Source: a virus (taxonomy: Duplodnaviria > Caudoviricetes). From it: DNA of 64,000 nucleotides. Location: IMG/VR virus record IMGVR_UViG_2513237143_000002, positions 2,755 to 66,754 of that record; one strand, 5' to 3'. The notes under the pieces are model-generated. The model made no database searches. It had not been told where the DNA came from and saw only the letters and a list, made by a program, of their open reading frames with translations. The translations under genes and the position numbers were made by a program. Positions 114 through 46,071 of this stretch are shown here, piece after piece. Each line of letters opens with the position of its first letter. Position 1 is the stretch's first letter.

Positions 114-162
114 TGGTGGGTGATCACGGGCTCGAACCGTGGACCCGCTGATTAAGAGTCAG
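114..162 (-). repeat. att core: 3' half of tRNA-Lys(CTT), left boundary of the satellite-like island
   Basis: The minus strand reads CTGACTCTTAATCAGCGGGTCCACGGTTCGAGCCCGTGATCACCCACCA: anticodon arm (CTT), T-arm and CCA. The 5' half of the tRNA is absent. Confidence 0.93.
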
Positions 163-269
163 TAGGCACGCCAATCTTATCAGCGGCATGCGTTAACGTA
201 ACATGCTGTTTTTCTTTCAGTTTATAATTTGACGTAGTTTCGAGTGTTAGGGTATGTTATAGCGATCCT

Positions 270-288
270 GCGCGGAAAAGCGCGGAAA
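270..288 (+). promoter_or_regulatory. Putative integrase arm-binding sites (GCGCGGAAA x2)
   Basis: GCGCGGAAA at 270-278 and 280-288; the same pair recurs at 10686-10706 inside the other end of the island. Confidence 0.65.
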
Positions 289-313
289 TTTTCCTGAATT
301 CAGCAGGTCCAAT

Positions 314-1531
314 ATGAAGCTCACGGCCGCCTCAATCGCCACATTGCCCCCTCGCAAACTCCCCTATCCTGATAGCCTCCTCCCCGGCCTCGCCCTCTAT
401 GTCGGCACCAGGCGGCGTACATGGCTCCTGCGCTACCGTAGCGGCGGCGGGAAACAGGTGCACGACAAGATCGGTTATTTCATCCCGAATGCGCCGGAAG
501 ACTCAGAGTCGCTCGGCCTTGCCGCCGCTCGTGAGAAGGCACGCGAAATCCTCGGTCGCGTCGAGGCGGGCGTCCCGGTCGCCGAAGCGCCGGTTCATCA
601 TCCTAAGACAGGCGGCGAGACCGTCGAACAGTCCCTGGACAAATATGAGAAATACCGCACTCGGCAGGGTGGCCGGATCAAGTCGCTGCCGAAGACTATG
701 AAGGCGCTACACTCGGCGCTCGCCGACTATGCCACCCTTCCCGTCGCCAACTTTACGCGACGCGATCTGCGCAGGGCGGCAGAGGTAATTGCCGACCGTG
801 GCTCGGTTCATGCGGCCTCGGCCTTCCTACGCTATGCCGGGCCATGGCTGAAATGGCTGGTGGAACGGGAACTGATCGAAACCAACTTCGCTCGGGACGT
901 GTCCAAGCCTGCCGCCGTTAAGAAGCGCAAGCGGGTTTTGAGCGATGAGGAGATCAGGCTCGTCTGGACAGCAGCAGGCTCAATGGAGGGCGTCCGCCGC
1001 GATGCGGCCAAGAACTACGGCAGGGCTGTGCAGCTCTTGATGTTGACGGGCCAACGGCTCGATGAGGTGATCAGCCTCAAGCATGGCGATATCCTCGACG
1101 GCAAGTGGCGCTTAAAGGGCGAACACAACAAGAGCGACCGCGACCACGTCGTCACGTTCTCGAAAACCGCCTTGAAGATCATCGGCACCGGAGAGGCCGA
1201 CCAGCGCGTCTTTCCGGGAGTGCATGGCAAGATTTCCGGATTTTCACGGCTAAAGAAGGATTTGGACAACCTTTCCGGCACTAGTGGCTGGCGCCTCCAC
1301 GATTTGAGGCGAACGCTTTTCACGCGCCTGGTCGAAGACCTCGACTTCCCCGAAGAAATCGCCCACGCCGTCTGCAATCACAAGCAACAGGGGCTTAGCG
1401 CCGTCTATAATCAAGCAAGCCGCGAACGGCAGAAAGCAAAGGCATGGGAAGCATGGGATGACCGTCTGCGCGTGATCCTCGCAACGCAAAAGGTGGTGAC
1501 GCTGGCAAAACCGCTAACCGGACTGAAGTAA
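314..1531 (+). CDS. int: Tyrosine recombinase/integrase with N-terminal arm-binding domain
   Basis: Catalytic motifs TGQRLDEV, WRLHDLRRT, CNH and VYN; adjacent to att. Confidence 0.95.
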   Translation: MKLTAASIATLPPRKLPYPDSLLPGLALYVGTRRRTWLLRYRSGGGKQVHDKIGYFIPNAPEDSESLGLAAAREKAREILGRVEAGVPVAEAPVHHPKTGGETVEQSLDKYEKYRTRQGGRIKSLPKTMKALHSALADYATLPVANFTRRDLRRAAEVIADRGSVHAASAFLRYAGPWLKWLVERELIETNFARDVSKPAAVKKRKRVLSDEEIRLVWTAAGSMEGVRRDAAKNYGRAVQLLMLTGQRLDEVISLKHGDILDGKWRLKGEHNKSDRDHVVTFSKTALKIIGTGEADQRVFPGVHGKISGFSRLKKDLDNLSGTSGWRLHDLRRTLFTRLVEDLDFPEEIAHAVCNHKQQGLSAVYNQASRERQKAKAWEAWDDRLRVILATQKVVTLAKPLTGLK

Positions 1532-1534
1532 ACG

Positions 1535-1606
1535 TACAATTTACTTGGATGCTAATTACCTTTATGGCAACAGAAATGGCCATCCACTCATACAAGTTAC
1601 TTGGAT
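1535..1606 (+). promoter_or_regulatory. 16-bp direct repeat TACAA(T/G)TTACTTGGAT, candidate operator
   Basis: Copies at 1535-1550 and 1591-1606 (one mismatch) in the AT-rich gap upstream of the replication operon. Confidence 0.55.
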
Positions 1607-1629
1607 AATCGCATGAAATTGCATGCATT

Positions 1630-1956
1630 TTGATGTTTTTACATTTATTCCCATCGCGTTCGGGGATTTACTTCTGGGGTAATCCGCAAAATGGGAGAAG
1701 CACCATGGGATTCTTCTCGGATCGCTACGTCAGGGTCTATCACCACCACCTCAAGAACGCAGGCGAAGTCACCAGCCGCTACGATCAACACATGAAGATC
1801 AAAAGGGGGTTGTTACCGCCACCGCACAAGGACGGCGACACGCAACAGGCGCGGGCATGGTGGTGGGCGTGGGAAATCGATGAGGCGATTGAATGCCAGC
1901 GCCGCGCCATCGCCGCGTCGGAGCGCGAGCGCCGCCAGCTTGAGGCGGCCGAATAA
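1630..1956 (+). CDS. Hypothetical protein (true start probably the downstream MGFFSDRY)
   Basis: ORF in the operon direction with a charged helical C-terminus; no family recognised. Confidence 0.55.
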   Translation: MMFLHLFPSRSGIYFWGNPQNGRSTMGFFSDRYVRVYHHHLKNAGEVTSRYDQHMKIKRGLLPPPHKDGDTQQARAWWWAWEIDEAIECQRRAIAASERERRQLEAAE

Positions 1957-2083
1957 AGAAGGGGCGCGACGATGCCGGCCCCTCTAAGCATGTTTCCAGT
2001 CTGGCGAATATAATCAGCCGCAACATGCAAGACAAGCATCGTCGCCGAGAGCCCCCTTCCCCAGCCCAAGGAAGGGAAGCCAG

Positions 2084-2341
2084 ATGACTGCCGATAATGT
2101 CATCCGTATACCCGTCACGCCCGATCATCGATGGTGGCGGTTCCTACTGCGCAATTGCGCCGGCCATGTATGGGCTTGCGAGGAGAATATTCGCCAGATC
2201 GCTCGCCACGATCTTGTGTTGCGGCGTCATGCCAAGGCGCAGGATGTCGAGGCGATGCGGGACCGTTTCCAATGGCTCGGGTTCCGCGACCGCTTGCCTT
2301 TCAGCCTTATCGCTGCCGCCATTGATGAGGCGATGCAATGA
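2084..2341 (+). CDS. Hypothetical protein
   Basis: Upstream GGAAGGG RBS-like sequence; ATGA overlap with the VapE gene. Confidence 0.6.
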   Translation: MTADNVIRIPVTPDHRWWRFLLRNCAGHVWACEENIRQIARHDLVLRRHAKAQDVEAMRDRFQWLGFRDRLPFSLIAAAIDEAMQ

Positions 2342-3588
2342 AAGCGGATGTAAGGCCCATCTCACACGGCGCCTATGACGGCTGGAAACGCGAACTCCAG
2401 ACGCGAAGGAACGGTGACTATGAGGCGAACCTCAGCAACGCCATTACGGCTCTGCGCGCCACCCATGCCCGCGAATTCTGGTATGACGCGATGACGCTGC
2501 AGATCATGCGCCGCACCTTCGGCACCCCATACATGACGCCCGAATTCACAGAAGAACAGTGCTATGACGACCGGCCGTTTGTAGAGGACGATCTAACCAT
2601 CATCCAAAAGTTTCTCCAAGACGAAGGCATGCGTCACATGCCGCGCCAAGCGGTAATGGACGCCGTGGCGCTGATCGCGCACGAGAACAGCTATCACCCG
2701 GTTTGCGGGTATCTAAACAATCGCGAATGGGACGGCGTGCCCCGGCTCGACACCTGGCTCTCTACCTATCTCGGCGCCGAACAATCCGACTACACCGCCG
2801 GCATCGGCCGTATGTTCCTGATTTCGATGATGGCGCGCGTCTTCAAGCCGGGCTGCAAGGCGGATCACATGATGGTGCTCGAAGGCGAACAGGGAACGCT
2901 GAAATCGACCGCCTGCGAGGTGCTGGCGGGCGAGTACTTCTCCGATCAACTCCCCGATATCGCCACCTGTGGCAAGGACGCCTCACAGCATTTGCGCGGC
3001 AAATGGCTGGTTGAGGTCGCGGAGCTTAGCGCCATGGGGCGCGCCGAGAACGCTCAGTTGAAAAGCTTCATCACCCGTCGCGTCGAACGCTATCGGCCGC
3101 CTTATGGCCGCGTCGAGCAGATAGAGCCACGACAATGCGTGTTCGTCGGCACCACGAACGCCTCGGCCTACCTCAGGGACGAGACCGGCGGCCGCCGGTT
3201 CTGGCCGGTGAAATGCGGCCGGATCGATATCGCGGCTTTACGCAAGGATCGTAACCAGCTTTTCGCCGAAGCCGTCCATGCTTTTCGCAATCGCGAGAAA
3301 TGGTGGCCGGATCGGGCCTTCGAAAAGAAGCACATCCAGCCGCAGCAGGAGAGGCGTTTTGAGGCCGACGCATGGGAGGAACCTATTCGAACCTTTGTTG
3401 CCGGCCAGCAATACGTGACGCTGACGCAAGTGGCGATTGGCGCTCTCAAGATGGAAGTGAAGCAATTCACCACAAGGCCCCAGAGGCGCGTCGCGGCGAT
3501 ACTTGAAAGCCTCGGATGGGAACGCGACGACAGCAAGGATGCTGCCACTAACAGGACGAGATGGCGGGCGCCGGAGGTGGGGTCGTGA
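2338..3588 (+). CDS. VapE (virulence-associated E) family SF3 helicase/replication ATPase
   Basis: Walker A GEQGTLKST, Walker B WLVEVAEL, FVGTTN and DETGGRRFWPV motifs. Confidence 0.92.
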   Translation: MKADVRPISHGAYDGWKRELQTRRNGDYEANLSNAITALRATHAREFWYDAMTLQIMRRTFGTPYMTPEFTEEQCYDDRPFVEDDLTIIQKFLQDEGMRHMPRQAVMDAVALIAHENSYHPVCGYLNNREWDGVPRLDTWLSTYLGAEQSDYTAGIGRMFLISMMARVFKPGCKADHMMVLEGEQGTLKSTACEVLAGEYFSDQLPDIATCGKDASQHLRGKWLVEVAELSAMGRAENAQLKSFITRRVERYRPPYGRVEQIEPRQCVFVGTTNASAYLRDETGGRRFWPVKCGRIDIAALRKDRNQLFAEAVHAFRNREKWWPDRAFEKKHIQPQQERRFEADAWEEPIRTFVAGQQYVTLTQVAIGALKMEVKQFTTRPQRRVAAILESLGWERDDSKDAATNRTRWRAPEVGS

Positions 3589-3593
3589 GTGCC

Positions 3594-3715
3594 GAAGGCA
3601 TCGAAGGCATTCTGCACAAAAGCAAATACGCGCGCGCGTATAATAAAATCAAACGGTTAGGGAGGTTCCTCAAAGGCTCTAATGGGGCGGTGCCTTCAGT
3701 GCCTTCAGTGCCTTC
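3594..3715. promoter_or_regulatory. Putative replication origin with inverted iterons
   Basis: GAAGGCA x2 (3594, 3603) and TGCCTTC x3 (3691, 3700, 3709) with 9-bp period, flanking an A-rich stretch and a (CG)n palindrome at about 3627-3640. Confidence 0.7.
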
Positions 3716-3768
3716 GTATCGAAGTGAACCGCGCCGGATCGATCTGGCGCAAGCAAAGGAGGATCGAA

Positions 3769-4425
3769 ATGAGCGAGCGAATGACGAAAGGCGAACGCGA
3801 GGATTTGCAGCGGCTCATCCGTCAGCGCGAGAAGGTGTTGAAAAGCGCGGCCAAGCAGCGATCAACCGAATTGCTTGCTGACTTCGAGAACCAGATTTCC
3901 GCGATGTACCAGTTCGACGACGACGAGGTTTGGGCAGCGGCCGAAAAGGCGGCAGCGGTCGAAGTCGAAAAGGCTAAACTGCGCGTCGCAGCCCGCTGCG
4001 CGGAACTGGGCATTCCCAAGCAATTTGCACCCAGCCTCAATCTCTACTGGAGCGGACGCAGCTATCATAATGGCGTCAAGCAACGCCGTGACGAACTGCG
4101 AAAGGCTGCACAGGCGCAGGTCGCCGCGCTGGAACAGAAAGCCATCGTCGCAATCGAAACGGCGTCCGTAGAGGCGCAAACCCAGGTCGCCATTGCCGGG
4201 CTGACGAGCGAAGCCGCGCGCGCCTTCATCTCCAATCTTCCCGCAGTGGATAGCCTTATGCCTACCTTGTCCTATCAAGAGATCGCGGGCGAAAGCGATA
4301 CGCCGATAGTCGAGCAAATGTTGACGCCGAATGCACTTCGCCAGCGCCGATTTCGAGAGCGTCAGAAGGCGTTACGTGACGCCAATGTAACGTTACCGAC
4401 AGGGGAAAACGAGGAAAGGCAATGA
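3769..4425 (+). CDS. Hypothetical coiled-coil protein
   Basis: AGGAGG RBS before ATG 3769; helical, charged sequence; overlaps the next gene. Confidence 0.75.
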   Translation: MSERMTKGEREDLQRLIRQREKVLKSAAKQRSTELLADFENQISAMYQFDDDEVWAAAEKAAAVEVEKAKLRVAARCAELGIPKQFAPSLNLYWSGRSYHNGVKQRRDELRKAAQAQVAALEQKAIVAIETASVEAQTQVAIAGLTSEAARAFISNLPAVDSLMPTLSYQEIAGESDTPIVEQMLTPNALRQRRFRERQKALRDANVTLPTGENEERQ

Positions 4426-4754
4426 GCGAGCGTCGTCGCATGCTCGATCAGGGCATCGCCGTCGTCGGAACCATGCGCAAGGTCGGCGGCGTCCTAGTCG
4501 ACCATGACTTAATCGCTTACGCGCAGGAGCGCGGGCTTGTCGTCCGCATTGATCGCCAGACGGACTGGGGCAATCCCTTCCCAGCGACATCGGAGTCGGA
4601 TCGCGATCCGGTCTGCGACCGATACGAAAGTTACCTGCGCGCCAATCCCGATCTGCTTGCACGCATCCCCTCACTCAAGGGCAAGCTGCTCTTGTGCTGG
4701 TGTCATCCTCGCAGGTGTCATGGCGACTTACTCGCAGCTCTGGCGAATGAGTGA
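4422..4754 (+). CDS. DUF4326 domain protein
   Basis: WGNPF and LKGKLLLCWCHPRRCHGDLL motifs. Confidence 0.85.
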   Translation: MSERRRMLDQGIAVVGTMRKVGGVLVDHDLIAYAQERGLVVRIDRQTDWGNPFPATSESDRDPVCDRYESYLRANPDLLARIPSLKGKLLLCWCHPRRCHGDLLAALANE

Positions 4755-5061
4755 ACGTGATGTTTCCGCCGGGGGATGGGCGGCAGGGGGGCGGGTCGCT
4801 AGGTTTGAGCAGGTGCTGGGGCCCGGCGGGGGCAGTCGCACGCGAGAATCCGGGCGGGACAATTTGGGGTTTTGTCTATACCAAAGGCCGGGAAATAGGT
4901 GCTCCTGATCTCGTTCTATCCGGCGCCAACCGCGCCGAACCCCGCCGTCACAGGATGCAACCGCCACTGCAACAACGACCCAGAGCTGCGGCGGCGATAG
5001 CGCCACCGTCATCGTTTCCTTTGCTATTGAGCGGCAGCGCCATCAATCTTATATCCTGAAG

Positions 5062-5084
5062 GCAGCGCGTTTCGGCGCTGCTTT
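5062..5084 (+). terminator. Possible intrinsic terminator
   Basis: GCAGCGC-GTTTCG-GCGCTGC hairpin followed by TTT. Confidence 0.45.
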
Positions 5085-5101
5085 CATTATGGGGATGACA
5101 C

Positions 5102-5407
5102 ATGGGGCGCATGAAAGAAATGATGCTGGAACGCGAGGGCAACCTTGCTCTGGCAGCGGATTACCTTGTTCAGAAAGGCGTTCTCGAGAAATGTGAACAC
5201 CACGGCGAGATATTCGGTGGTGGTTACTGGGATCTCGAACCAGAGTTCTGGCGGAATGGGATGGCTGATCGAAATCGCGGTGCGAGTGGGCCGGTCCCGT
5301 GGGCCGCCGAAATGGAGGCCCGTGAGTACACCGATCTCTTGAAGGAAGCATACGAAGATCACTCCGGCGACGGATGCGGGTATTGCGCGAAGAATATGGC
5401 TGACTGA
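5102..5407 (+). CDS. Hypothetical acidic protein (CxxH and CxxC motifs)
   Basis: Clean ORF with protein-like composition. Confidence 0.7.
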   Translation: MGRMKEMMLEREGNLALAADYLVQKGVLEKCEHHGEIFGGGYWDLEPEFWRNGMADRNRGASGPVPWAAEMEAREYTDLLKEAYEDHSGDGCGYCAKNMAD

Positions 5408-5556
5408 TTTTGATGACAGCAACGGTTGGGTCATCCGGCCGCTTAGTAATCGTTTCGTTTGCGTAACGATCATGTTATCCTTGGCTTGCCGTGGAGTGCT
5501 GACCGGCCAGCCAAGGATATCGCCCCTCCCCGGCCTAGGCCGATGGAGGTTTTTTA

Positions 5557-6642
5557 ATGCACGATTATCTTGAGGCATCCGATTGGCAGCGTATCCAGCG
5601 CATCGAAAAGGCGCTTGAGAGTCAGAAAGGCTTGCTTGTTGCTCTTGAAAGGGCCACTCGGCAACAGAAGCCCGGACGTGCCGCTCGCCGCGTCGATCCC
5701 GGCATGACGCTCATCAAAATGGCCGCCGCCTATGCGCGTGATGAAGGCGCCGAGGCTATCGAGGCCATCCGCCGCTCGGCCGTCGCCCCGGCGGATACAG
5801 TGACGCCGGGATGGGCCGCCGAATTAGTGCAATCCATCGTCGCCGGCTTCGTCCTGTCGATTGCCGGGCAAAGCGCCTATGCGGCGTTGGCGGCGAGAAC
5901 TGAGCCACTGCGGTTCGGCCGCAACGGCTCGCAAGCGGTAAGCTACGGCGGCGGCGCGTCGGCTGGGTTTGTTGGTGAAGGCGGGATGATCCCGGTCACG
6001 TCCGGCACAATCGGCAAATTGTTTGTGCGGCCGAAGAAAATCGCGGCGATTGCAACGTTCTCAAGCGAGACTGCAAAATCCGCCTCTTTCGAGACGGTTC
6101 TTGGCGCGCTGCTACGCGATGCGGCGGCAAAAGCGCTGGATGCGGTGTTTTTCGGAGATGCCGCAGGTAGCCCGGCGCAGCCGCCCGGCGTACTTGTCGG
6201 CCTCACGGCAATCCCTCCGTCATCGGCAATCGATCCGGTGCGGGCAATGGCCGCAGATATGGCGGGACTCGTCGCGGCGCTCGACAGCCCGCGCGATCCT
6301 TGTTTCGTCATGAGCCCGGCCAAGCGGCTCTTTGCCTCTGCAAACATTGGCCCGAGGTTTGATTATCCGGTCTTTGCCAGCAGCGCGATTCCGAACGATC
6401 GGCTGGTTTGCGTTGATGCGGCGGCGCTTACCGCAACGCACGGCGATACCCCGGATTTCCTGGCTGGCAACGAAATGATGATCGAGGAACAGGATGCAGA
6501 CGACATCGTCTCGCCGATCATGAGCGGTAGCCCGGTTCGCTCGATGTGGCAAACCGACACTCGGGCTTTGCAGGTCACGCTGGAATGCGCGTGGGCTATC
6601 CGCCCCGGCGGCGCGGCCTTTACGGAGGCGGTCACATGGTAA
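5557..6642 (+). CDS. HK97-fold major capsid protein homolog
   Basis: AGFVGEGGMIP, PKKIAAIATFS, AAKALDAVF and SMWQTD motifs; GGAGG RBS. Confidence 0.85.
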   Translation: MHDYLEASDWQRIQRIEKALESQKGLLVALERATRQQKPGRAARRVDPGMTLIKMAAAYARDEGAEAIEAIRRSAVAPADTVTPGWAAELVQSIVAGFVLSIAGQSAYAALAARTEPLRFGRNGSQAVSYGGGASAGFVGEGGMIPVTSGTIGKLFVRPKKIAAIATFSSETAKSASFETVLGALLRDAAAKALDAVFFGDAAGSPAQPPGVLVGLTAIPPSSAIDPVRAMAADMAGLVAALDSPRDPCFVMSPAKRLFASANIGPRFDYPVFASSAIPNDRLVCVDAAALTATHGDTPDFLAGNEMMIEEQDADDIVSPIMSGSPVRSMWQTDTRALQVTLECAWAIRPGGAAFTEAVTW

Positions 6643-7040
6643 AGCACACTTCTTTCGGCGATGCGGGCGATCTTACCCAACGGATGATCGAACGCCGTCG
6701 CCGGCTCGATGAGATGCAGCGGGAGGCGCCAGCGGCCCCGGCCGTGCAGTACATGACGAAAGCCGATTTCCGCGCTTTCAAGGCCGAGTTGGAAAAGGGT
6801 TTGCATGCAGCGGGCCAGCATGTCGGCAGACGGATCGCCGAGGAGCGCGCGGAAATCCAGGTGCAACACCGGCATTTCTTGACAGAGGCGCGCGCAACGC
6901 TTCGGCAGTTGCAATCGGAAGCGAGCGAGCGTCGATCCCAAATCGTTGCGATCCGGCGCGAAAACGAAAAGCTCGCCGACGAAATAGAGACGCTGAAACA
7001 GGCAATCGCCGAGCGGCCGGGTTTGCGGAGTGTAAAATGA
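6636..7040 (+). CDS. Hypothetical coiled-coil protein
   Basis: ATG 6636 with GGAGG RBS overlapping the capsid stop; heptad-like C-terminus. Confidence 0.7.
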   Translation: MVKHTSFGDAGDLTQRMIERRRRLDEMQREAPAAPAVQYMTKADFRAFKAELEKGLHAAGQHVGRRIAEERAEIQVQHRHFLTEARATLRQLQSEASERRSQIVAIRRENEKLADEIETLKQAIAERPGLRSVK

Positions 7041-7252
7041 ACGAGTCTCAAGCCCTCGCCGACGAATTCGCGCGCCGTCGCCAAAGCTTTGCCGGCGGCG
7101 ATATCTTCATCCTTGCTGTGCTCCCAGATGGTCGCGGTTTCCGCTGCCATACGGTCGAGTCAGGGCTTGAGGCCGAGGAACTAAGCCGCGACGAAATGGC
7201 CGCCGCCATTATCGAGCTTTACGGCGGCATGGCGCAGTTCAGGAAAAACTGA
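7037..7252 (+). CDS. Hypothetical protein
   Basis: ATGA overlap with the previous gene. Confidence 0.6.
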   Translation: MNESQALADEFARRRQSFAGGDIFILAVLPDGRGFRCHTVESGLEAEELSRDEMAAAIIELYGGMAQFRKN

Positions 7253-7361
7253 CGCGCACCGGAGCGGCGCCCATTTGGTTGCGTTTCCTCACACGTGACA
7301 ACGCATGATCGATTGCCCTAATTTCTTCAGGCCTGATTCGATAACCGGAGGGAGTGGGGAA

Positions 7362-7865
7362 ATGGTTACTGCTCGACAATCGCTTGGCGAATTTGGGGAG
7401 CAGCGCGTTGTCCAAGATTGCCATTGCCCCAGATGCAAGAGAACTAGAACGCTAGTCCGCCTTCCGCCGAATTTTAAGTGCGCAGACGTTATATGCGATT
7501 TTTGCGGCTATCTGGCTCAGGTTAAGGCCGCAAGCGTGAAACAACTAGATCGCCTGCCGAAATCCATCTTAGGCGCAGCATGGGGTCCCCAATGGGAGCG
7601 TATGCAGGCGGCCATCTATTTTCCGCTCTTTGTAGTGTTGGTGGCTCCGAACGGGGATTACTCCATATTTTATCTTTCCGCCGACTTGCAGGAAGCTGAG
7701 ATGTTCAAGCCTCGCAAGCCTCTCTCCGAGAAGGCCCGTCGCGCTGGTTGGCAGGGTTTTTTGTACGACATGCAAACTGTTGAAGGACGCGCCGTCGGTT
7801 GCGCTAGCCTTGCCCCCACCTACCTGCAAGCCTCCAGCAACCGTTTCGCGACGTTCGTGAGGTAG
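7362..7865 (+). CDS. DpnI-like (PD-(D/E)xK, Zn-binding) endonuclease catalytic domain
   Basis: GE...CPRC...ADVICDFC..LAQVK pattern matches the DpnI N-terminal domain; GGAGGGAG RBS before ATG 7362. Confidence 0.7.
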   Translation: MVTARQSLGEFGEQRVVQDCHCPRCKRTRTLVRLPPNFKCADVICDFCGYLAQVKAASVKQLDRLPKSILGAAWGPQWERMQAAIYFPLFVVLVAPNGDYSIFYLSADLQEAEMFKPRKPLSEKARRAGWQGFLYDMQTVEGRAVGCASLAPTYLQASSNRFATFVR

Positions 7866-8704
7866 TAAGGAAGGAACCACCGGCGCTCTTGTCCAATGTT
7901 GTAGTAATGGACAATCTTATGGTCTGGGACATTGTCCGACATTAAGTCGAGATGGTAATATATATTTGCTAGTTCACCCTTTAGCTCGGAAGTGTTGACT
8001 CGTATATGCTCGTCGCGCAACATCTCAGCCGTGACCAGATCGCTTGACCTGTCAAACTTTGTTTCCACAAAAAGCAATCCAAGCCTCAGCAGATTGCTGA
8101 TTGAGTGAGAAACATTCTGGCTTCCGAATTCATTTTCAATACGCGTTCCCCGCTCTTCGATGAATCTCATATATTCCAGTCTCCTCTCACCGAAATTAGC
8201 TGTGGCTAAAGTAGGCCTGACTTTGTCCAGACCTAGGTCGGCGTGTTCCTGTGCGCTTTCGAGATAGAAATTAAGAATCAGCGCATCTAGACCGCTCATG
8301 CGCTCCAATAGCTTAGGGAATGCGGGATCAAGAGGTCTCGCGTTGTTTGGATTCATCGCGTTTGCGAGCAAGGCGGCCCACATTTCTGTCAGATTGGGAT
8401 CGTCTTGCTTCGAAGCGCCTTCGAAGATCGCATACAGTTCACCCATTGGCAGCGATTTCGCCTTCTCAATGGGTATACCTGACGTCTCCAAGTGCTCCTT
8501 TGTTTTGACAAGTGTAGTGACCAGTCGTCGCGTCCGCCACTGCTTTACGCCATCGCCAAACAGTCCGCCGAACACGTCACCGACGACGCCCGCAATGCCG
8601 TCAAATGTGGTGTTCATTGCGCGTTCAGCTACGCGGGCGGCCGCCGCCTCCATCTCGCTTTTTAAAAGCGTAATTTCAGGCGCTTTCTGAATCTCATTCG
8701 ACAA
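7820..8704 (-). CDS. Abi-alpha (DUF4393) family protein
   Basis: DDPNLTEMWAALLANA and PAFPKLLERMSGLDALIL motifs; visibly AT-richer than flanking genes. Confidence 0.75.
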   Translation of the reverse strand: MSNEIQKAPEITLLKSEMEAAAARVAERAMNTTFDGIAGVVGDVFGGLFGDGVKQWRTRRLVTTLVKTKEHLETSGIPIEKAKSLPMGELYAIFEGASKQDDPNLTEMWAALLANAMNPNNARPLDPAFPKLLERMSGLDALILNFYLESAQEHADLGLDKVRPTLATANFGERRLEYMRFIEERGTRIENEFGSQNVSHSISNLLRLGLLFVETKFDRSSDLVTAEMLRDEHIRVNTSELKGELANIYYHLDLMSDNVPDHKIVHYYNIGQERRWFLPYYLTNVAKRLLEACR

Positions 8705-8724
8705 GTTGCGTCATCTCCGAGAGA

Positions 8725-8750
8725 AAGCCCGCCGGTCTCCCGGCGGGCTT
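8725..8750 (-). terminator. Intrinsic terminator
   Basis: 11-bp perfect stem AAGCCCGCCGG/CCGGCGGGCTT with a T tract on the minus strand. Confidence 0.75.
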
Positions 8751-8764
8751 ATAGAGGCGGGGTG

Positions 8765-8902
8765 CTATTTGCCCTTCTTCTCATCCTGAGACAGGACGGA
8801 AGCGGCTAGCTTTTTTGCATCGGCCTGCGTGGGCTTTTTGCTACCGTTCAAGATCTTTGCGGCGAGCGTAGACGTGCTGGGGCTTGATTGCTTCTTTGCC
8901 AT
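8765..8902 (-). CDS. Small basic protein (45 aa), not in the ORF track
   Basis: Manual translation MAKKQSSPSTSTLAAKILNGSKKPTQADAKKLAASVLSQDEKKGK; TGATG coupling to the upstream gene. Confidence 0.7.
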   Translation of the reverse strand: MAKKQSSPSTSTLAAKILNGSKKPTQADAKKLAASVLSQDEKKGK

Positions 8903-9078
8903 CAAACACCTGCCGCCGGCATAACATCGCCGAATTTCTTGCCAGTCTTGATCTCGCTCACGCGCCCCTGATTTATTTTGAACATGGCCGCTATTTCGTG
9001 CTGCGCCATGTTGTTGAGCAGGTAGCGCTTGATCTCAGCTGCCATCTGCGGCGTTACGTCCGGGGAGACTCTTCGCAT
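8902..9078 (-). CDS. Small HTH protein (58 aa), not in the ORF track
   Basis: Manual translation MRRVSPDVTPQMAAEIKRYLLNNMAQHEIAAMFKINQGRVSEIKTGKKFGDVMPAAGV. Confidence 0.7.
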   Translation of the reverse strand: MRRVSPDVTPQMAAEIKRYLLNNMAQHEIAAMFKINQGRVSEIKTGKKFGDVMPAAGV

Positions 9079-9462
9079 TCGGGTAGGCCTCCTTGGGCCT
9101 GCCCGGCTTGTTCAGCGTGGCAAATCACTATAGGGTCTTCTTGTTCAGGGAGAGACCTTACAGTCTTACCAGCCTGCCGCGCCGGGATTGCTTGTGTGCG
9201 GCTCCACGAGTTGCCCCGGCGGGCCATCCCGTCGGGTGCTCGATTCGATTCGAGCAGGGTTGAAATTACCTCAAACTTTCGCGCCACAATAGCTGTCAAC
9301 CCTGAGACTCACGGGTTTCTCTTTTCGTTCCACAATATTCTGTGGGTTCACTGTGGATAACGTGAATAACTCAATCTCTCCACTGAGATAGGCGAGTCGG
9401 AAAAAGTCGTAGATCTTCACCTGGGGATTTGTGCAAGTCGGCGTTACCCCCTAGGGCCCGGT

Positions 9463-9883
9463 TCAATAGTACGGATGCCCGAGTTTTCCCCCGAGCGGCG
9501 GCCCGGCGACAGTTCTAGGCCTCGCGACTTCCCGATAAAGCTTTTCGATCCGCCGCGCCTCATGAGGCGTAGGCTCTCGGCCGGCCAGGATGCGCCGGAC
9601 GGTATCGCGGCCGATACCGCATCGCTCGCCGATTTCGATGCGCTGCCAGCCGGCGGCAATCAACGCCGCGATCTGTTCGGCAGGGTTTTCCGTTCGAAGT
9701 CCATACGCGTTCGATCTTGCGCCAAGTGTCGTAGGAAGGTTGCCGCGCCTCGCCGACCGCGATTCGCCAAACCGTAGTGCGAGAGACACCCGATTGCTTG
9801 GAAATCGCGCCGTAGCTCATGCCTGTGGATTTTAGGCCTTCGACCATCGATTCGAAGTCGTCCGGTGACGTTTGGTAAGGCAT
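9463..9883 (-). pseudogene. Tandem-HTH regulator split by a probable 1-nt frameshift at the T4 run 9686-9689
   Basis: HTH1 (MSYGAISKQSGVSRTTVWRI) and HTH2 (QRIEIGERCGIGRDTVRRIL) are in different frames; removing one base fuses them. Confidence 0.55.
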
Positions 9884-10140
9884 TCCGGAATTATGCTCTA
9901 TCTGAGCATAAAAGCAATTTTCGCAACGTAGTCGGTCCCGCCGAATCGCGGGCTCAATCCACTACGAGAAGCAAAGTCGGCTTCGCGATTCTGCGACAGT
10001 TATGTAATGTAATGACGCTAAAGCGGCCGAGGTTGCCGATCAGCCTTAGCCTCGATGCGGTCAGGCCGGTATTCACGGGCTCCAGACCTGTGATGTGGAC
10101 GGCGTGAATTCAACGAGCGCAGAATACGAACGGGGAAAAC

Positions 10141-10623
10141 ATGGCCTACTGCCGCGAATGTAAACAGGAAAAACCGAACTATCAGGTTCAGCTCGGGGTT
10201 TGTGACGAATGTTTTAACCACATCTCGAAAGCCTCCTCCGGCGCAAGTACACCCCCACCGCCGGCAACGACTCCTTTCGAATGGCATCAGGTCATTCTGA
10301 CAACATCGATGGATGTTCCAAACCGTCGCATAGAACGTATAGTCTCGATTGTCGCCACAGAGGCAGCGCTGGGCATCAACGTCTTTCGGGACATTGCCAA
10401 CAACTGGCGCGATTTCCTCGGAGGACGTTCAAAATCCTCGCAAAATGCATTGGCTGAGGCGCGCGCCGCGTGTCTAAACGAATTAAAAAGGGAGGCGGCG
10501 CGCCTTGGCGCCGACGCTGTAATTGCAGTTGACCTGGATTACAACGAAATTTCAGCTGCAGCGAATGGCATCGTTTTCGTTGCCGCTACCGGGACGGCGG
10601 TGAAGCTGGCACTCGAAGCCTGA
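10141..10623 (+). CDS. YbjQ/UPF0145 family protein with N-terminal Zn ribbon
   Basis: ILTT...GGRS...AR...AARLGADAVIAVDLDY...GTAVKL; N-terminal CxxC-x12-CxxC. Confidence 0.88.
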   Translation: MAYCRECKQEKPNYQVQLGVCDECFNHISKASSGASTPPPPATTPFEWHQVILTTSMDVPNRRIERIVSIVATEAALGINVFRDIANNWRDFLGGRSKSSQNALAEARAACLNELKREAARLGADAVIAVDLDYNEISAAANGIVFVAATGTAVKLALEA

Positions 10624-10685
10624 AGGACCGCCAGCCGCAAGCCAAGTGATTCCCGGAAGATGACCATGGCACGATAATTTCATTC

Positions 10686-10706
10686 GCGCGGAAAAATGCG
10701 CGGAAA
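10686..10706 (+). promoter_or_regulatory. Putative integrase arm-binding sites (GCGCGGAAA x2)
   Basis: Copies at 10686-10694 and 10698-10706, same orientation as 270-288. Confidence 0.65.
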
Positions 10707-10772
10707 GTGTGATTCGGCCAGTTCTGGCATCTATCAGTAATTCCGGTAAAACCTTATCTTTACTAAGGTTTT

Positions 10773-10818
10773 TGGTGGGTGATCACGGGCTCGAACCGTG
10801 GACCCGCTGATTAAGAGT
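10773..10818 (-). repeat. Second att core (tRNA-Lys 3' half), junction between island and prophage
   Basis: 46 bp identical to 114-159. Confidence 0.93.
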
Positions 10819-10955
10819 AATCTATTTTTCTCTGAACAGCCTACAAATCAAGTAAAGCGGTTTCCAATGCCGTGCAATAACTACACCTGAAAACGCGGAA
10901 CGTTTCGTGAATTGGAAACCGCAAATTAGTTGTTCTTTGACTGATCTGCAACAGG

Positions 10956-11778: not shown

Positions 11779-12753
11779 TCATATAATCTGAAACACCGTC
11801 GCATCGTCCGCCCTCTCCCTGATCCTCTTGAAGGACGGATGCCGCAGCTTCCCGTCCTCAGTCCAGGCGCGATACTCGACATCGGCCACCAGCAGAGGCT
11901 CGGTGAAGACGGCGCCCTTCCTCGTCAGCGCCACCGCCGGCGTTTTCGTCTTCATCCCTTCGAGCAGCTTCCGCAGCTCGCGCGACAGTTCGTTTGACCA
12001 GCCAGTCCCGCAGCCGCCGACATAGACGAGATCGTTGCCCTGGCGCGCGGCGAGCAGCAGCCGGCCGAGATTGCCAGGCACGGTCGACGGCTCGAAGCCA
12101 ACGATAACGAAGCTATCCCGGCGCTTGCAGGTGATCTTCTGCCACCATTCACCGCGGCCAGACCGATACGGCTTTTCGATGTGCTTGGCGATGATGCCTT
12201 CGAGACCGTGCGCGCAGGCGACGCGGAAGAACTCGTCTCCATCCGCCTGCACCTCCTCCGACAGCCGAACGGCCCCTTCCCGGCCCGCCACGAGCGGCTC
12301 GAGCAACCGCCGGCGCTCTCGCAGCGGCAGCCGACGAAGGTCGCGGCCGTCGAGATAGAGAAGATCGAAGGCATAGAAGACGATGGCGCCGGCTTCGACG
12401 GCCGACGGCAAGCGCCCGAGCGCCCGCTGCAACATGCCGAAATCGGAGCGGCCCTTGTCGTCGAGCACGACCGCCTCGCCGTCGAGGATGGCCGTTTTCA
12501 CCGCCAGGCGCTGTGCATCATCTACGATCGTGGGGAACCTCTCGGTCCAGTCGTAGCCGCCGCGCGTGAGGATCCGCACCCGGGCGGGCTCGATGTGAAC
12601 CGCGAGCCGGTATCCGTCCCATTTCACTTCGTAGGGCCAGTCCGGCCCCTTCGGAGGTTTGTTGACGAGCGTCGCCAAGCAGGGGTCAACCCGCGCGGGC
12701 ATCGGATCAATAGGAGGGAGATCACGCGGCTTCTTTGAGGATGCTCTGGCCAT
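11779..12753 (-). CDS. ligD: LigD-type ATP-dependent DNA ligase (ligase + OB domains only)
   Basis: EVKWDGYR adenylation motif, LDGE, FDLL, EGIIAK and RHPSF. Confidence 0.92.
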   Translation of the reverse strand: MARASSKKPRDLPPIDPMPARVDPCLATLVNKPPKGPDWPYEVKWDGYRLAVHIEPARVRILTRGGYDWTERFPTIVDDAQRLAVKTAILDGEAVVLDDKGRSDFGMLQRALGRLPSAVEAGAIVFYAFDLLYLDGRDLRRLPLRERRRLLEPLVAGREGAVRLSEEVQADGDEFFRVACAHGLEGIIAKHIEKPYRSGRGEWWQKITCKRRDSFVIVGFEPSTVPGNLGRLLLAARQGNDLVYVGGCGTGWSNELSRELRKLLEGMKTKTPAVALTRKGAVFTEPLLVADVEYRAWTEDGKLRHPSFKRIRERADDATVFQII

Positions 12754-38306: not shown

Positions 38307-39275
38307 TTACGGAGCGGTGATTTCGTCGCCATAGGCAGCGGCACCGGGCAGACGCCATTCGGTACCGCCGGTACGGGCGATGATGCCGGTCTCGAAGCCC
38401 ATGATGGACTTCTGGCGCGGCTGGAGGACACGGCGCGGCATCGGCAGGTGGAAGCGGAGAACTTCCGAATCCCGGCGATACACGACCATGCGGCCGCCGC
38501 CGTCCTGGGAGGCATTCGCGAGCTCGCGCAGCGGCTGGATGTCGAGCGGCTGGTTGGTTTCCGCCGTGTAGACGTTGTTGCGGCGGATGTATTCCAGGAG
38601 CGTCAGGAGGCCGTCACCCTCGCCGAGGCGGCGGGTGGCGATGAGGCGGAACGCTTCCGGCGGCAGGCGCAGCGTGTCCACCCATTCCACTTCCGAGGTG
38701 TTCTCGCGGACGCTGGAGATCAGGTCGTTGATGTCCCGGAGGATCTGGTCGTTGGACTTCGCCGACCAGAAAGTCGAAGAGCCCGTGCCATCCGCGGCAA
38801 CATCGACACGCGAGACCTGTGGGTCGTTGACGAAGCCGGTCCAGTTCTTCTCGGTCGTGCCGACCATGGCAACCGAGTTGAGCAGGCGCTCGACCTTGTC
38901 GGAAGCCGACATGGCCTTGGTGCCGTTCAGGTCGATACCGTAAAGGGCAGCCTGATTGACCTCCTCGAGGTTCCACTCCCAGCCGGAGCCGATCATCGCG
39001 AAGTCATGGCTGGCCATGTCCTTCGTGGCTTGGTTGAAGGGCATGTCGGTACCGGCACCGGAGAGGAACTTCGCCTCGCCTGCCGTATCGACGGTGAAGA
39101 AGGTCGTCCCGATCGCCCAGGCGTTCCCTTCCGTCACCACGGGCACATGCGCACCGTAGTTGAAGGTCGGATAACGCCGCTGGTAGATGCGGGTCTCGAT
39201 GTTGCGCCCCTGCGCGATGACGAAGGGGAACGCGGCCTGCGCATCAGCGAAGGCCTGACGGATGATCTGGTTCAT
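38307..39275 (-). CDS. Major capsid protein (DUF2184 family)
   Basis: GSGWEWNLEEV and ARTGGTEWRLPGA motifs; position. Confidence 0.88.
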   Translation of the reverse strand: MNQIIRQAFADAQAAFPFVIAQGRNIETRIYQRRYPTFNYGAHVPVVTEGNAWAIGTTFFTVDTAGEAKFLSGAGTDMPFNQATKDMASHDFAMIGSGWEWNLEEVNQAALYGIDLNGTKAMSASDKVERLLNSVAMVGTTEKNWTGFVNDPQVSRVDVAADGTGSSTFWSAKSNDQILRDINDLISSVRENTSEVEWVDTLRLPPEAFRLIATRRLGEGDGLLTLLEYIRRNNVYTAETNQPLDIQPLRELANASQDGGGRMVVYRRDSEVLRFHLPMPRRVLQPRQKSIMGFETGIIARTGGTEWRLPGAAAYGDEITAP

Positions 39276-45996: not shown

Positions 45997-46071
45997 TGGT
46001 TGCAGGCCCGGGAATCGAACCCGGTCTTTCGTGGTTATGAGCCACGCGGCTTACCAGTTGCCCTGCCTGCT
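45997..46071 (-). tRNA. tRNA with CAT anticodon (Met, or Ile2 if lysidine-modified)
   Basis: Full cloverleaf: acceptor GCAGGC/GCCTGC, anticodon stem CGTGG/CCACG with loop CTCATAA, T-arm CCGGG-TTCGATT-CCCGG, encoded CCA. Confidence 0.9.

Follow-up and report, generated by a model that had tools for sequence, protein, structure and literature searches.

A Rhizobiales family of solo-capsid islands that most likely spreads by hijacking helper phages

The 64,000-nucleotide stretch of DNA considered here (part of the IMG/VR provirus record IMGVR_UViG_2513237143_000002, positions 2,755 to 66,754; hereafter the window) contains, at positions 114-10818, an intact mobile island from a rhizobial bacterium, with a single phage capsid gene that encodes the protein P0001. 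The island is a member of a hitherto undescribed family of Rhizobiales islands, roughly 9.5-11.6 kb in size and located beside tRNA genes, which most likely spread by hijacking helper phages. We consider it probable that the window island is an integrative satellite akin to phage-inducible chromosomal islands (PICIs), and that its capsid protein either forms small heads on the portal of a helper phage or reshapes them. A helper-dependent satellite is suggested by three observations: the layout resembles that of the staphylococcal capsid homolog Ccm, the island sizes fall within a narrow range, and some sister islands carry tail or packaging parts.

Results

P0001 is predicted to adopt the HK97 capsid fold

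P0001 comprises 361 amino acids (aa), and its gene is preceded by a GGAGG ribosome-binding site. The protein has no direct Pfam match, the curated cut-off of PF05065 not being reached, and matches PHROG 617 'major head protein' with an E value of 1.5e-19. An exhaustive search of 1.84 billion representatives returned 2080 homologs at E<=1e-3, and PF05065 Phage_capsid was found in 88 of the 127 best. The AlphaFold2 model built on the alignment of these homologs has a mean predicted local distance difference test score (pLDDT) of 90.3 and displays helices at residues 7-35, 50-60 and 65-75, followed by a complete capsid body. In a Foldseek comparison, the top 49 listed matches in the PDB and the top 50 in BFVD were capsid proteins of phages, satellites or gene transfer agents (GTAs), nearly all labelled HK97-type, among them Bxb1 (E 4.5e-13), Muddy, SaPI1/80alpha and HK97, for each of which Foldseek gave a probability of 1.00. 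In the PDB list, an encapsulin appeared no higher than rank 50, at 6e-8. We are confident that P0001, as modelled, has an HK97 capsid fold together with a helical N-terminal domain of roughly 75 residues. The original prediction, made from the letters of the window and a list of its open reading frames (ORFs), had named just such a 361-aa capsid homolog with a helical N-terminal extension, and profile match, model and fold search all bear it out. GTA and encapsulin readings were rejected; P0001 has no encapsulin-family match in Pfam.

In a tree, P0001 groups with strong support among stand-alone proteins 325-452 aa long; S. meliloti and S. fredii are both represented in this clade of 24. The closest homologs of P0001 include WP_164829892.1 and RVI43662.1 of S. 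meliloti, MEY9780553.1 of S. fredii and a protein of Bradyrhizobium sp. BRP14. Homologs at 63-65% identity retain the full length including the N-terminal domain, and the closest relatives are rare. A tblastn search of P0001 against 50,697 cultured phage records gave no match even at E=1, a plasmid search gave distant matches only, and a metagenome scan found two distant loci only. Scans of genome contigs with P0001, A3 and P0004 and of viral contigs with P0156, P0010 and P0013 produced no matches, and a scan of viral contigs with the VapE helicase of the island returned two unrelated phage contigs. Three of the capsid relatives (P0160, P0010 and P0011) come from contigs of 11.2-11.6 kb; as this is about the size of a whole island, these contigs may be separately assembled or episomal elements.

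The capsid gene overlaps a conserved coiled-coil partner

Three overlapping genes form an operon with its own leader; the first encodes P0001, the solo HK97-fold capsid protein, the second a protein of coiled-coil character and the third a small protein:

5408-5556, plus strand: capsid-operon leader with inverted repeats and the GGAGG ribosome-binding site
5557-6642, plus strand: solo HK97-fold major capsid protein homolog P0001
6636-7040, plus strand: coiled-coil partner protein P0155, 134 aa
7037-7252, plus strand: ORF of 71 codons, overlapping the preceding gene by 4 nucleotides (nt), no family match

As originally predicted, the gene that follows the capsid gene looks like a coiled-coil gene, both from the composition of P0155 and from weak matches to coiled-coil families. 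Its family matches are weak and driven by composition (a PmgS-like PHROG at 2e-5; Phage_scaffold at 0.07). The gene begins at 6636 with an ATG upstream of the capsid stop, giving a 7-nt overlap, and the capsid and coiled-coil genes of the sister element G808 share exactly this start/stop overlap. P0155 is 31% identical (E 7e-7) to the product of the gene that follows the capsid gene in a second sister element, G798, and the coiled-coil genes of G798 and G808 are 56% identical to each other. In the island of E. adhaerens L18, an ORF of 106 aa with coiled-coil character lies directly upstream of the capsid gene, so that a partner of this kind is found in four elements of the solo-capsid family. 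Strains of S. meliloti hold P0155 homologs at 81% and 73% identity, and MDW9409560.1 is one example of an S. meliloti homolog; none was found in 23 genomes of the genus, and the ESM Atlas offered nothing usable. By sequence comparison, the idea of a conserved partner overlapping the capsid gene is well supported. The suggestion that 6636-7040 encodes a scaffold thus stands in part: a scaffold-like role is reasonable for a conserved, overlapping partner of a capsid gene, but it is unproven.

The leader motif GTGGAKTGCTGACCGG..GGAGGTTTTTTAATGC is common to the capsid operon of the window and the capsid module of the L18 island. A conserved region with the palindrome GGTTATATCCG-NN-CGGATATAAC lies upstream of the capsid genes of G808 and G798 (L234, about 12160-12200; L236, reverse strand) and could be an operator or a packaging site.

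The island has the anatomy of a satellite and lacks a head module

The remainder of the island comprises the following features:

114-159, minus strand: left attachment repeat, the 46-nt 3' half of tRNA-Lys(CTT), an incomplete tRNA matching 10773-10818 exactly
314-1531, plus strand: tyrosine integrase (PF00589 and Arm-DNA-bind_3; phrog_1 at 1e-39)
2338-3588, plus strand: VapE/D5-type replicative helicase (PF05272 at 1e-78; DNA helicase/primase families of PHROGs)
3769-4425, plus strand: helical protein of 218 aa, 71% identical to the product of a gene upstream of the G798 capsid gene
4422-4754, plus strand: DUF4326 protein (PF14216 at 1e-20)
5102-5407, plus strand: small Cys/His protein (phrog_6325 at 9.5e-5; weak lambda Ea8.5-like match, 0.016)
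7305-7865, plus strand: DpnI-like nuclease, cargo (PF06044 at 4.5e-14)
7820-8704, minus strand: Abi_alpha abortive-infection protein, cargo (PF14337 at 2.3e-21)
9463-9789, minus strand: helix-turn-helix (HTH) regulator near the integrase-distal, right end of the island (HTH_3 at 7e-7)
10141-10623, plus strand: YbjQ-domain protein, cargo (PF01906 at 1e-26)
10773-10818, minus strand: right attachment repeat, the second exact copy of the tRNA-Lys 3' half

The two direct repeats, identical at 46/46 positions, bound an island of 10.66 kb, and the same 46-mer constitutes the tRNA-Lys 3' half in genomes of Ensifer, Sinorhizobium, Shinella and other Alphaproteobacteria. With an integrase at one end, attachment repeats and a size within about 8-18 kb, the element presents PICI-type anatomy, and the VapE helicase provides it with a replication module of its own; the claim that this is a satellite-like element is upheld on all these counts. 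The integrase shares 43-48% identity with those encoded by the tRNA-Lys islands of E. adhaerens L18 and G808, and an ORF resembling the HTH gene of the window, judged by eye without scoring, occupies the integrase-distal end of the L18 island. No AlpA-family match was found among the island proteins, and the HTH_3 protein stands at the far end; the helical protein at 3769-4425 matches no family, and the ESM Atlas yielded nothing usable for it.

The original prediction also held that the island lacks portal, protease and terminase genes. Indeed, comparison of the ORFs within 114-10818 with Pfam, PHROGs and NCBIfam yielded no portal, protease, large terminase or small terminase, also at permissive thresholds; a hidden small terminase (TerS), portal or protease among the small ORFs is unsupported at E values up to 5, and the integrase and VapE are the only ORFs of the size of a portal or large terminase (TerL). 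Tail genes were likewise not detected in the island. The head components of a capsid-forming PICI (cfPICI) are the portal, protease, capsid, head-tail adaptors and TerS, and a cfPICI reading was ruled out, because the window island holds only the capsid gene and two small partners rather than a full head module. A P4-like reading was likewise rejected: no match annotated as Sid, Psu, Delta or the alpha primase-helicase core was seen in PHROGs or Pfam, and only the helicase part of primase/helicase PHROGs was matched.

Neither ARAGORN nor Rfam reports a tRNA at 114-159. The 5' half of tRNA-Lys is missing from the entire window, and neither 3'-half copy (114-195 and 10773-10860) runs into one. 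Prophage-like DNA begins exactly at 10819, and the equivalent island of E. adhaerens L18 abuts an intact tRNA-Lys. Taken together, these observations suggest a tandem array, with the intact tRNA-Lys located beyond the window.

Solo-capsid islands recur beside tRNA genes

A profile made from P0001 and its five closest homologs was run on 401 sampled Rhizobiaceae genomes and followed by a search at genus level. It matched 13 places in 11/401 genomes and two further places at genus level. Matches to capsid domains within larger fusion proteins lie in prophages; stand-alone matches lie beside a tRNA gene wherever the neighbourhood was examined (G500:C20 and G463 were left out). Ten sister elements carry a solo capsid gene, and 8/10 are bounded by direct repeats of tRNA 3' ends (19-52 nt) and measure 9.45-11.6 kb:

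G808: tRNA Lys-TTT, 10.9 kb
E. adhaerens L18 (L219): tRNA Lys-CTT, 11.35 kb
L220: tRNA Gln, 10.9 kb
L224: tRNA Pro, 9.45 kb
L226: tRNA Gln, 10.2 kb
L228: tRNA Phe, 10.0 kb
L229: tRNA Lys, 9.8 kb
L230: tRNA Phe, 11.6 kb

The other two are L222, with its capsid gene about 1 kb from a tRNA-Lys and no second repeat found, and G798, for which neither a tRNA nor a repeat was found within the 38 kb examined. One genome (G164) carries two islands of the family, L228 and L229, whose capsid proteins are 69% identical.

The sister islands retain the solo capsid gene but exchange their replication modules, which include an AAA_25 helicase, a primase-helicase, a DnaD-like loader and a polymerase/primase. 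Their large ORFs encode integrases and replication proteins and, in G808, G798 and L230, also a tape-measure protein of 611-779 aa (L234, 14444-16624; L236, 9058-11397; L230, 6398-8233); those of G808 and G798 combine a TMP_2 domain with a lysozyme or VanY peptidase domain. These three elements have a capsid-plus-tape-measure satellite layout; a Neck1/tail-completion protein is also present in G798, and a small terminase in L230. A portal or TerL was never seen among the large ORFs of the sister islands; the TerL and portal-size proteins of related fusion-type prophages found no match at the solo-capsid loci, and in the genomes of sister islands the Pfam portal and TerL matches (PF04860 and PF03354) are located on different contigs or at distances above 190 kb.

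Nei-Gojobori ratios of nonsynonymous to synonymous substitution rates (dN/dS) were obtained for the alignable capsid genes of sister islands. The ratio is 0.30 for L228-L229 (dS 0.77), and 0.17 for both L228-L230 and L229-L230, where dS (1.8-2.2) is near saturation. The sister-island capsid genes are under purifying selection, and the decay across homologous islands (dN/dS near 1) that would have refuted the original prediction is not seen at the level of the family; the homologs of P0001 at 63-65% identity are also full length.

Phage relatives and a probable helper other than the neighbouring prophage

Among IMG/VR contigs and Rhizobiaceae prophages, the phage counterpart of P0001 is a capsid domain, 26-36% identical, that makes up the C-terminal half of larger proteins, about 640 aa long. 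We read these proteins as fusions of a prohead protease and a capsid protein, with a putative protease domain, because of their size, the coordinates of the PHROG 617 profile and one BFVD match named 'prohead protease'. P0001 corresponds to the linker and capsid part of such a protein, the linker following the putative protease domain in the fusions. On their flanks lie two ORFs, one of TerL size (517-588 aa) and one of portal size (about 462-500 aa). The TerS of island L230 (8489-8950) is 52% identical (E 9e-38) to the TerS of the Rhizobiaceae prophage L223 (12965-13381), where it precedes TerL and a protease-capsid fusion. This resemblance ties the island family to the fusion-type phage group and makes L230 and L223, judged from their sequences, a candidate pair of satellite and helper.

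A prophage next to the island in the window possesses a complete head and tail module. Its relevant features, and two others outside the island, are as follows:

22874-45090, minus strand: complete head and tail module, with TerL (PF04466), portal (PF06381), DUF2213 and an E217/Pam3-type cement protein in the head part
38307-39275, minus strand: prophage capsid, PF09950 'Major_capside'
Neighbouring prophage: tape-measure protein of 961 aa with a lysozyme domain
11779-12753, minus strand: stand-alone ATP-dependent DNA ligase (ligase A_M and A_C domains), just outside the island
45997-46071: tRNA-Met

The original prediction had assigned the prophage capsid to another family, DUF2184, which we take to be PF09950, and had proposed an HK97-like helper that need not be the neighbour. 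Both views are supported. No DNA or protein similarity was found between island and prophage, and this, together with the different capsid family, rules out the prophage both as helper and as source. Some other phage, of the HK97 type, is the likely helper. Between the island and any compared phage locus, no similarity was found beyond the capsid domain.

Discussion

How might a single capsid gene promote the spread of an island? We envision that a helper phage of the HK97 type, probably from the protease-capsid-fusion group, replicates and thereby gives the satellite the occasion to excise and replicate as well. P0001 would then assemble on the helper portal; its short, delta-like N-domain would direct this step, perhaps together with the coiled-coil partner as scaffold. 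P0001 might form either a whole shell or Ccm-like capsomers mixed with the helper capsid protein. The resulting heads would be small, with room for about 10-11 kb but not for the helper genome, while protease, terminase, connectors and tail would be provided by the helper.

Several observations weigh against this scenario. Neither attachment copy has an intact tRNA next to it, and the island borders on a prophage at its right end; its present-day mobility is therefore unproven. Neither a small terminase nor a cos or pac site in common with a compared phage was detected in the island, and among the compared phage loci no helper for it was found. The dN/dS values derive from sister islands outside the clade of P0001. 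Judged from its sequence, P0001 may build a whole shell, mix with helper capsid protein or only poison assembly.

Alternatively, P0001 may serve a purely anti-phage function, co-assembling with the capsid of an invading HK97-type phage and poisoning its heads, the island itself never being packaged. The DpnI-like and Abi_alpha defence genes directly downstream of the capsid operon and the lack of a detectable terminase or packaging site in the island would suit such a function, and known satellites do interfere through capsid genes (PMC5052747). We nevertheless regard it as unlikely, because the eight repeat-bounded sister islands keep to a narrow range of 9.45-11.6 kb, and because the TerS, tape-measure and Neck1/tail-completion proteins of some sisters make sense solely for particle formation; interference and transfer are, in any case, not mutually exclusive.

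Less probable still is that the island is a helper-free, portal-less HK97 'mini virus', or the maker of an encapsulin-like compartment. Its gene set (integrase, helicase, capsid and possible scaffold, without portal, terminase or tail) does match that of recently described genomes of 8.75 kb (PMC13669383). Yet the fold search favours phage capsids over encapsulins, in line with the lack of an encapsulin-family Pfam match, no cargo enzyme is adjacent to the capsid gene, and the tape-measure, Neck1 and TerS proteins of the sisters imply tailed helper particles. That the island is a decaying prophage remnant which retained a capsid gene by chance, as the missing intact tRNA at both attachment copies and the rarity of close capsid relatives might be taken to indicate, is very improbable given the perfectly matching repeats, the intact integrase and compact gene packing, the full-length capsid ORF with its confident fold and same-length homologs at 63-65% identity, the ten independent solo-capsid elements (eight with tRNA-repeat boundaries) and the low dN/dS of the sisters.

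Within the satellite reading, a more far-reaching version is possible, although we hold it only tentatively: the islands may constitute a separate, minimal 'half capsid-forming' class, in which the entire small shell is built by the satellite with its coiled-coil scaffold on a portal stolen from the helper, and in which some members set tail length through their own tape-measure protein. If true, this class would represent the missing step between PICIs that remodel helper capsids and cfPICIs that provide full heads. In either version, the family offers a tractable Sinorhizobium/Ensifer system for asking how the portal, protease and terminase of a helper accept a foreign capsid protein. It would account for some of the 'orphan' capsid genes in genome annotations, and it points to elements that carry anti-phage defence genes in symbionts of agricultural importance.

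Comparison with known satellites

Lone-capsid satellites are already known, namely SaPIbov5 with Ccm, PmCI172, EcCICFT073 and the mini genomes of 2026. The original prediction had placed the window island outside both the Ccm type and the cfPICIs. The second half of this statement holds, but the first was overstated, since satellites with a lone capsid gene are documented beyond staphylococci and the layout of P0001 mirrors that of Ccm.

The closest parallel is provided by the cos-type staphylococcal pathogenicity islands (SaPIs). Ccm of SaPIbov5 and SaPIbov4, whose helper is phi12, measures 355 aa and has a helical delta domain (residues 1-82/87) that is cleaved (1-87); it occupies the pentamers of T=4 SaPIbov5 procapsids (PMC5052747, PMC8569155). 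P0001, with 361 aa and helices to about residue 75, is built alike, and each element is a small satellite of integrative type that encodes one HK97-fold capsid homolog without portal, protease or terminase, with an HK97-type phage as the expected helper. The window island differs in its alphaproteobacterial host, in its backbone of VapE helicase and tRNA-Lys integration, in the conserved coiled-coil partner overlapping the capsid gene and in the lack of a detectable helper cos site, and no sequence relationship extends beyond the fold family. The mechanism of Ccm, pentamer substitution in a prolate helper, would be only a candidate for P0001.

Among proteobacterial satellites, PmCI172, which encodes a capsid homolog, produces small capsids, and EcCICFT073 carries a capsid and a decoration gene; deletion of the capsid-like or decoration gene of EcCICFT073 did not restore normal lambda plaquing, and this element is packaged in full-size heads (PMC6092414). 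Like both, the window element is an integrase-bounded proteobacterial island with a capsid homolog, and as in EcCICFT073 this homolog is paired with a second gene, a coiled-coil gene here and a head gene there. Those elements, however, belong to Gammaproteobacteria and are built on alpA and pri-rep, whereas no AlpA was detected in the window island.

The portal-less HK97 'mini viral genomes' of Aguilar et al. (2026), of about 8.75 kb, combine capsid, scaffold, integrase and helicase (PMC13669383). The window island shares with them an integrase, a helicase/Rep protein and a capsid with a possible scaffold, as well as the lack of terminase, portal and tail. Their source is human-gut metagenomes, and encapsulin domains, of which P0001 has none, are enriched among their capsids; the tail and terminase parts of the sister islands point to helper dependence instead. 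A cfPICI is reported to encode everything needed for its own small capsids and packaging and to steal only tails (10.1101/2022.09.08.507074). The window island likewise supplies its own capsid protein, but only with the two small partners.

The SatelliteFinder survey mentions neither Alphaproteobacteria nor rhizobia, and the marine virion-encapsidated integrative mobile elements (VEIMEs), which are alphaproteobacterial satellites, have no capsid genes. The satellite literature that we compared, including these two bodies of work, makes no mention of a solo-capsid family in Rhizobiales. This family is defined by its solo capsid gene, a coiled-coil partner in four elements, a variable complement of tape-measure, TerS and Neck1 proteins, and its link to fusion-type phages.

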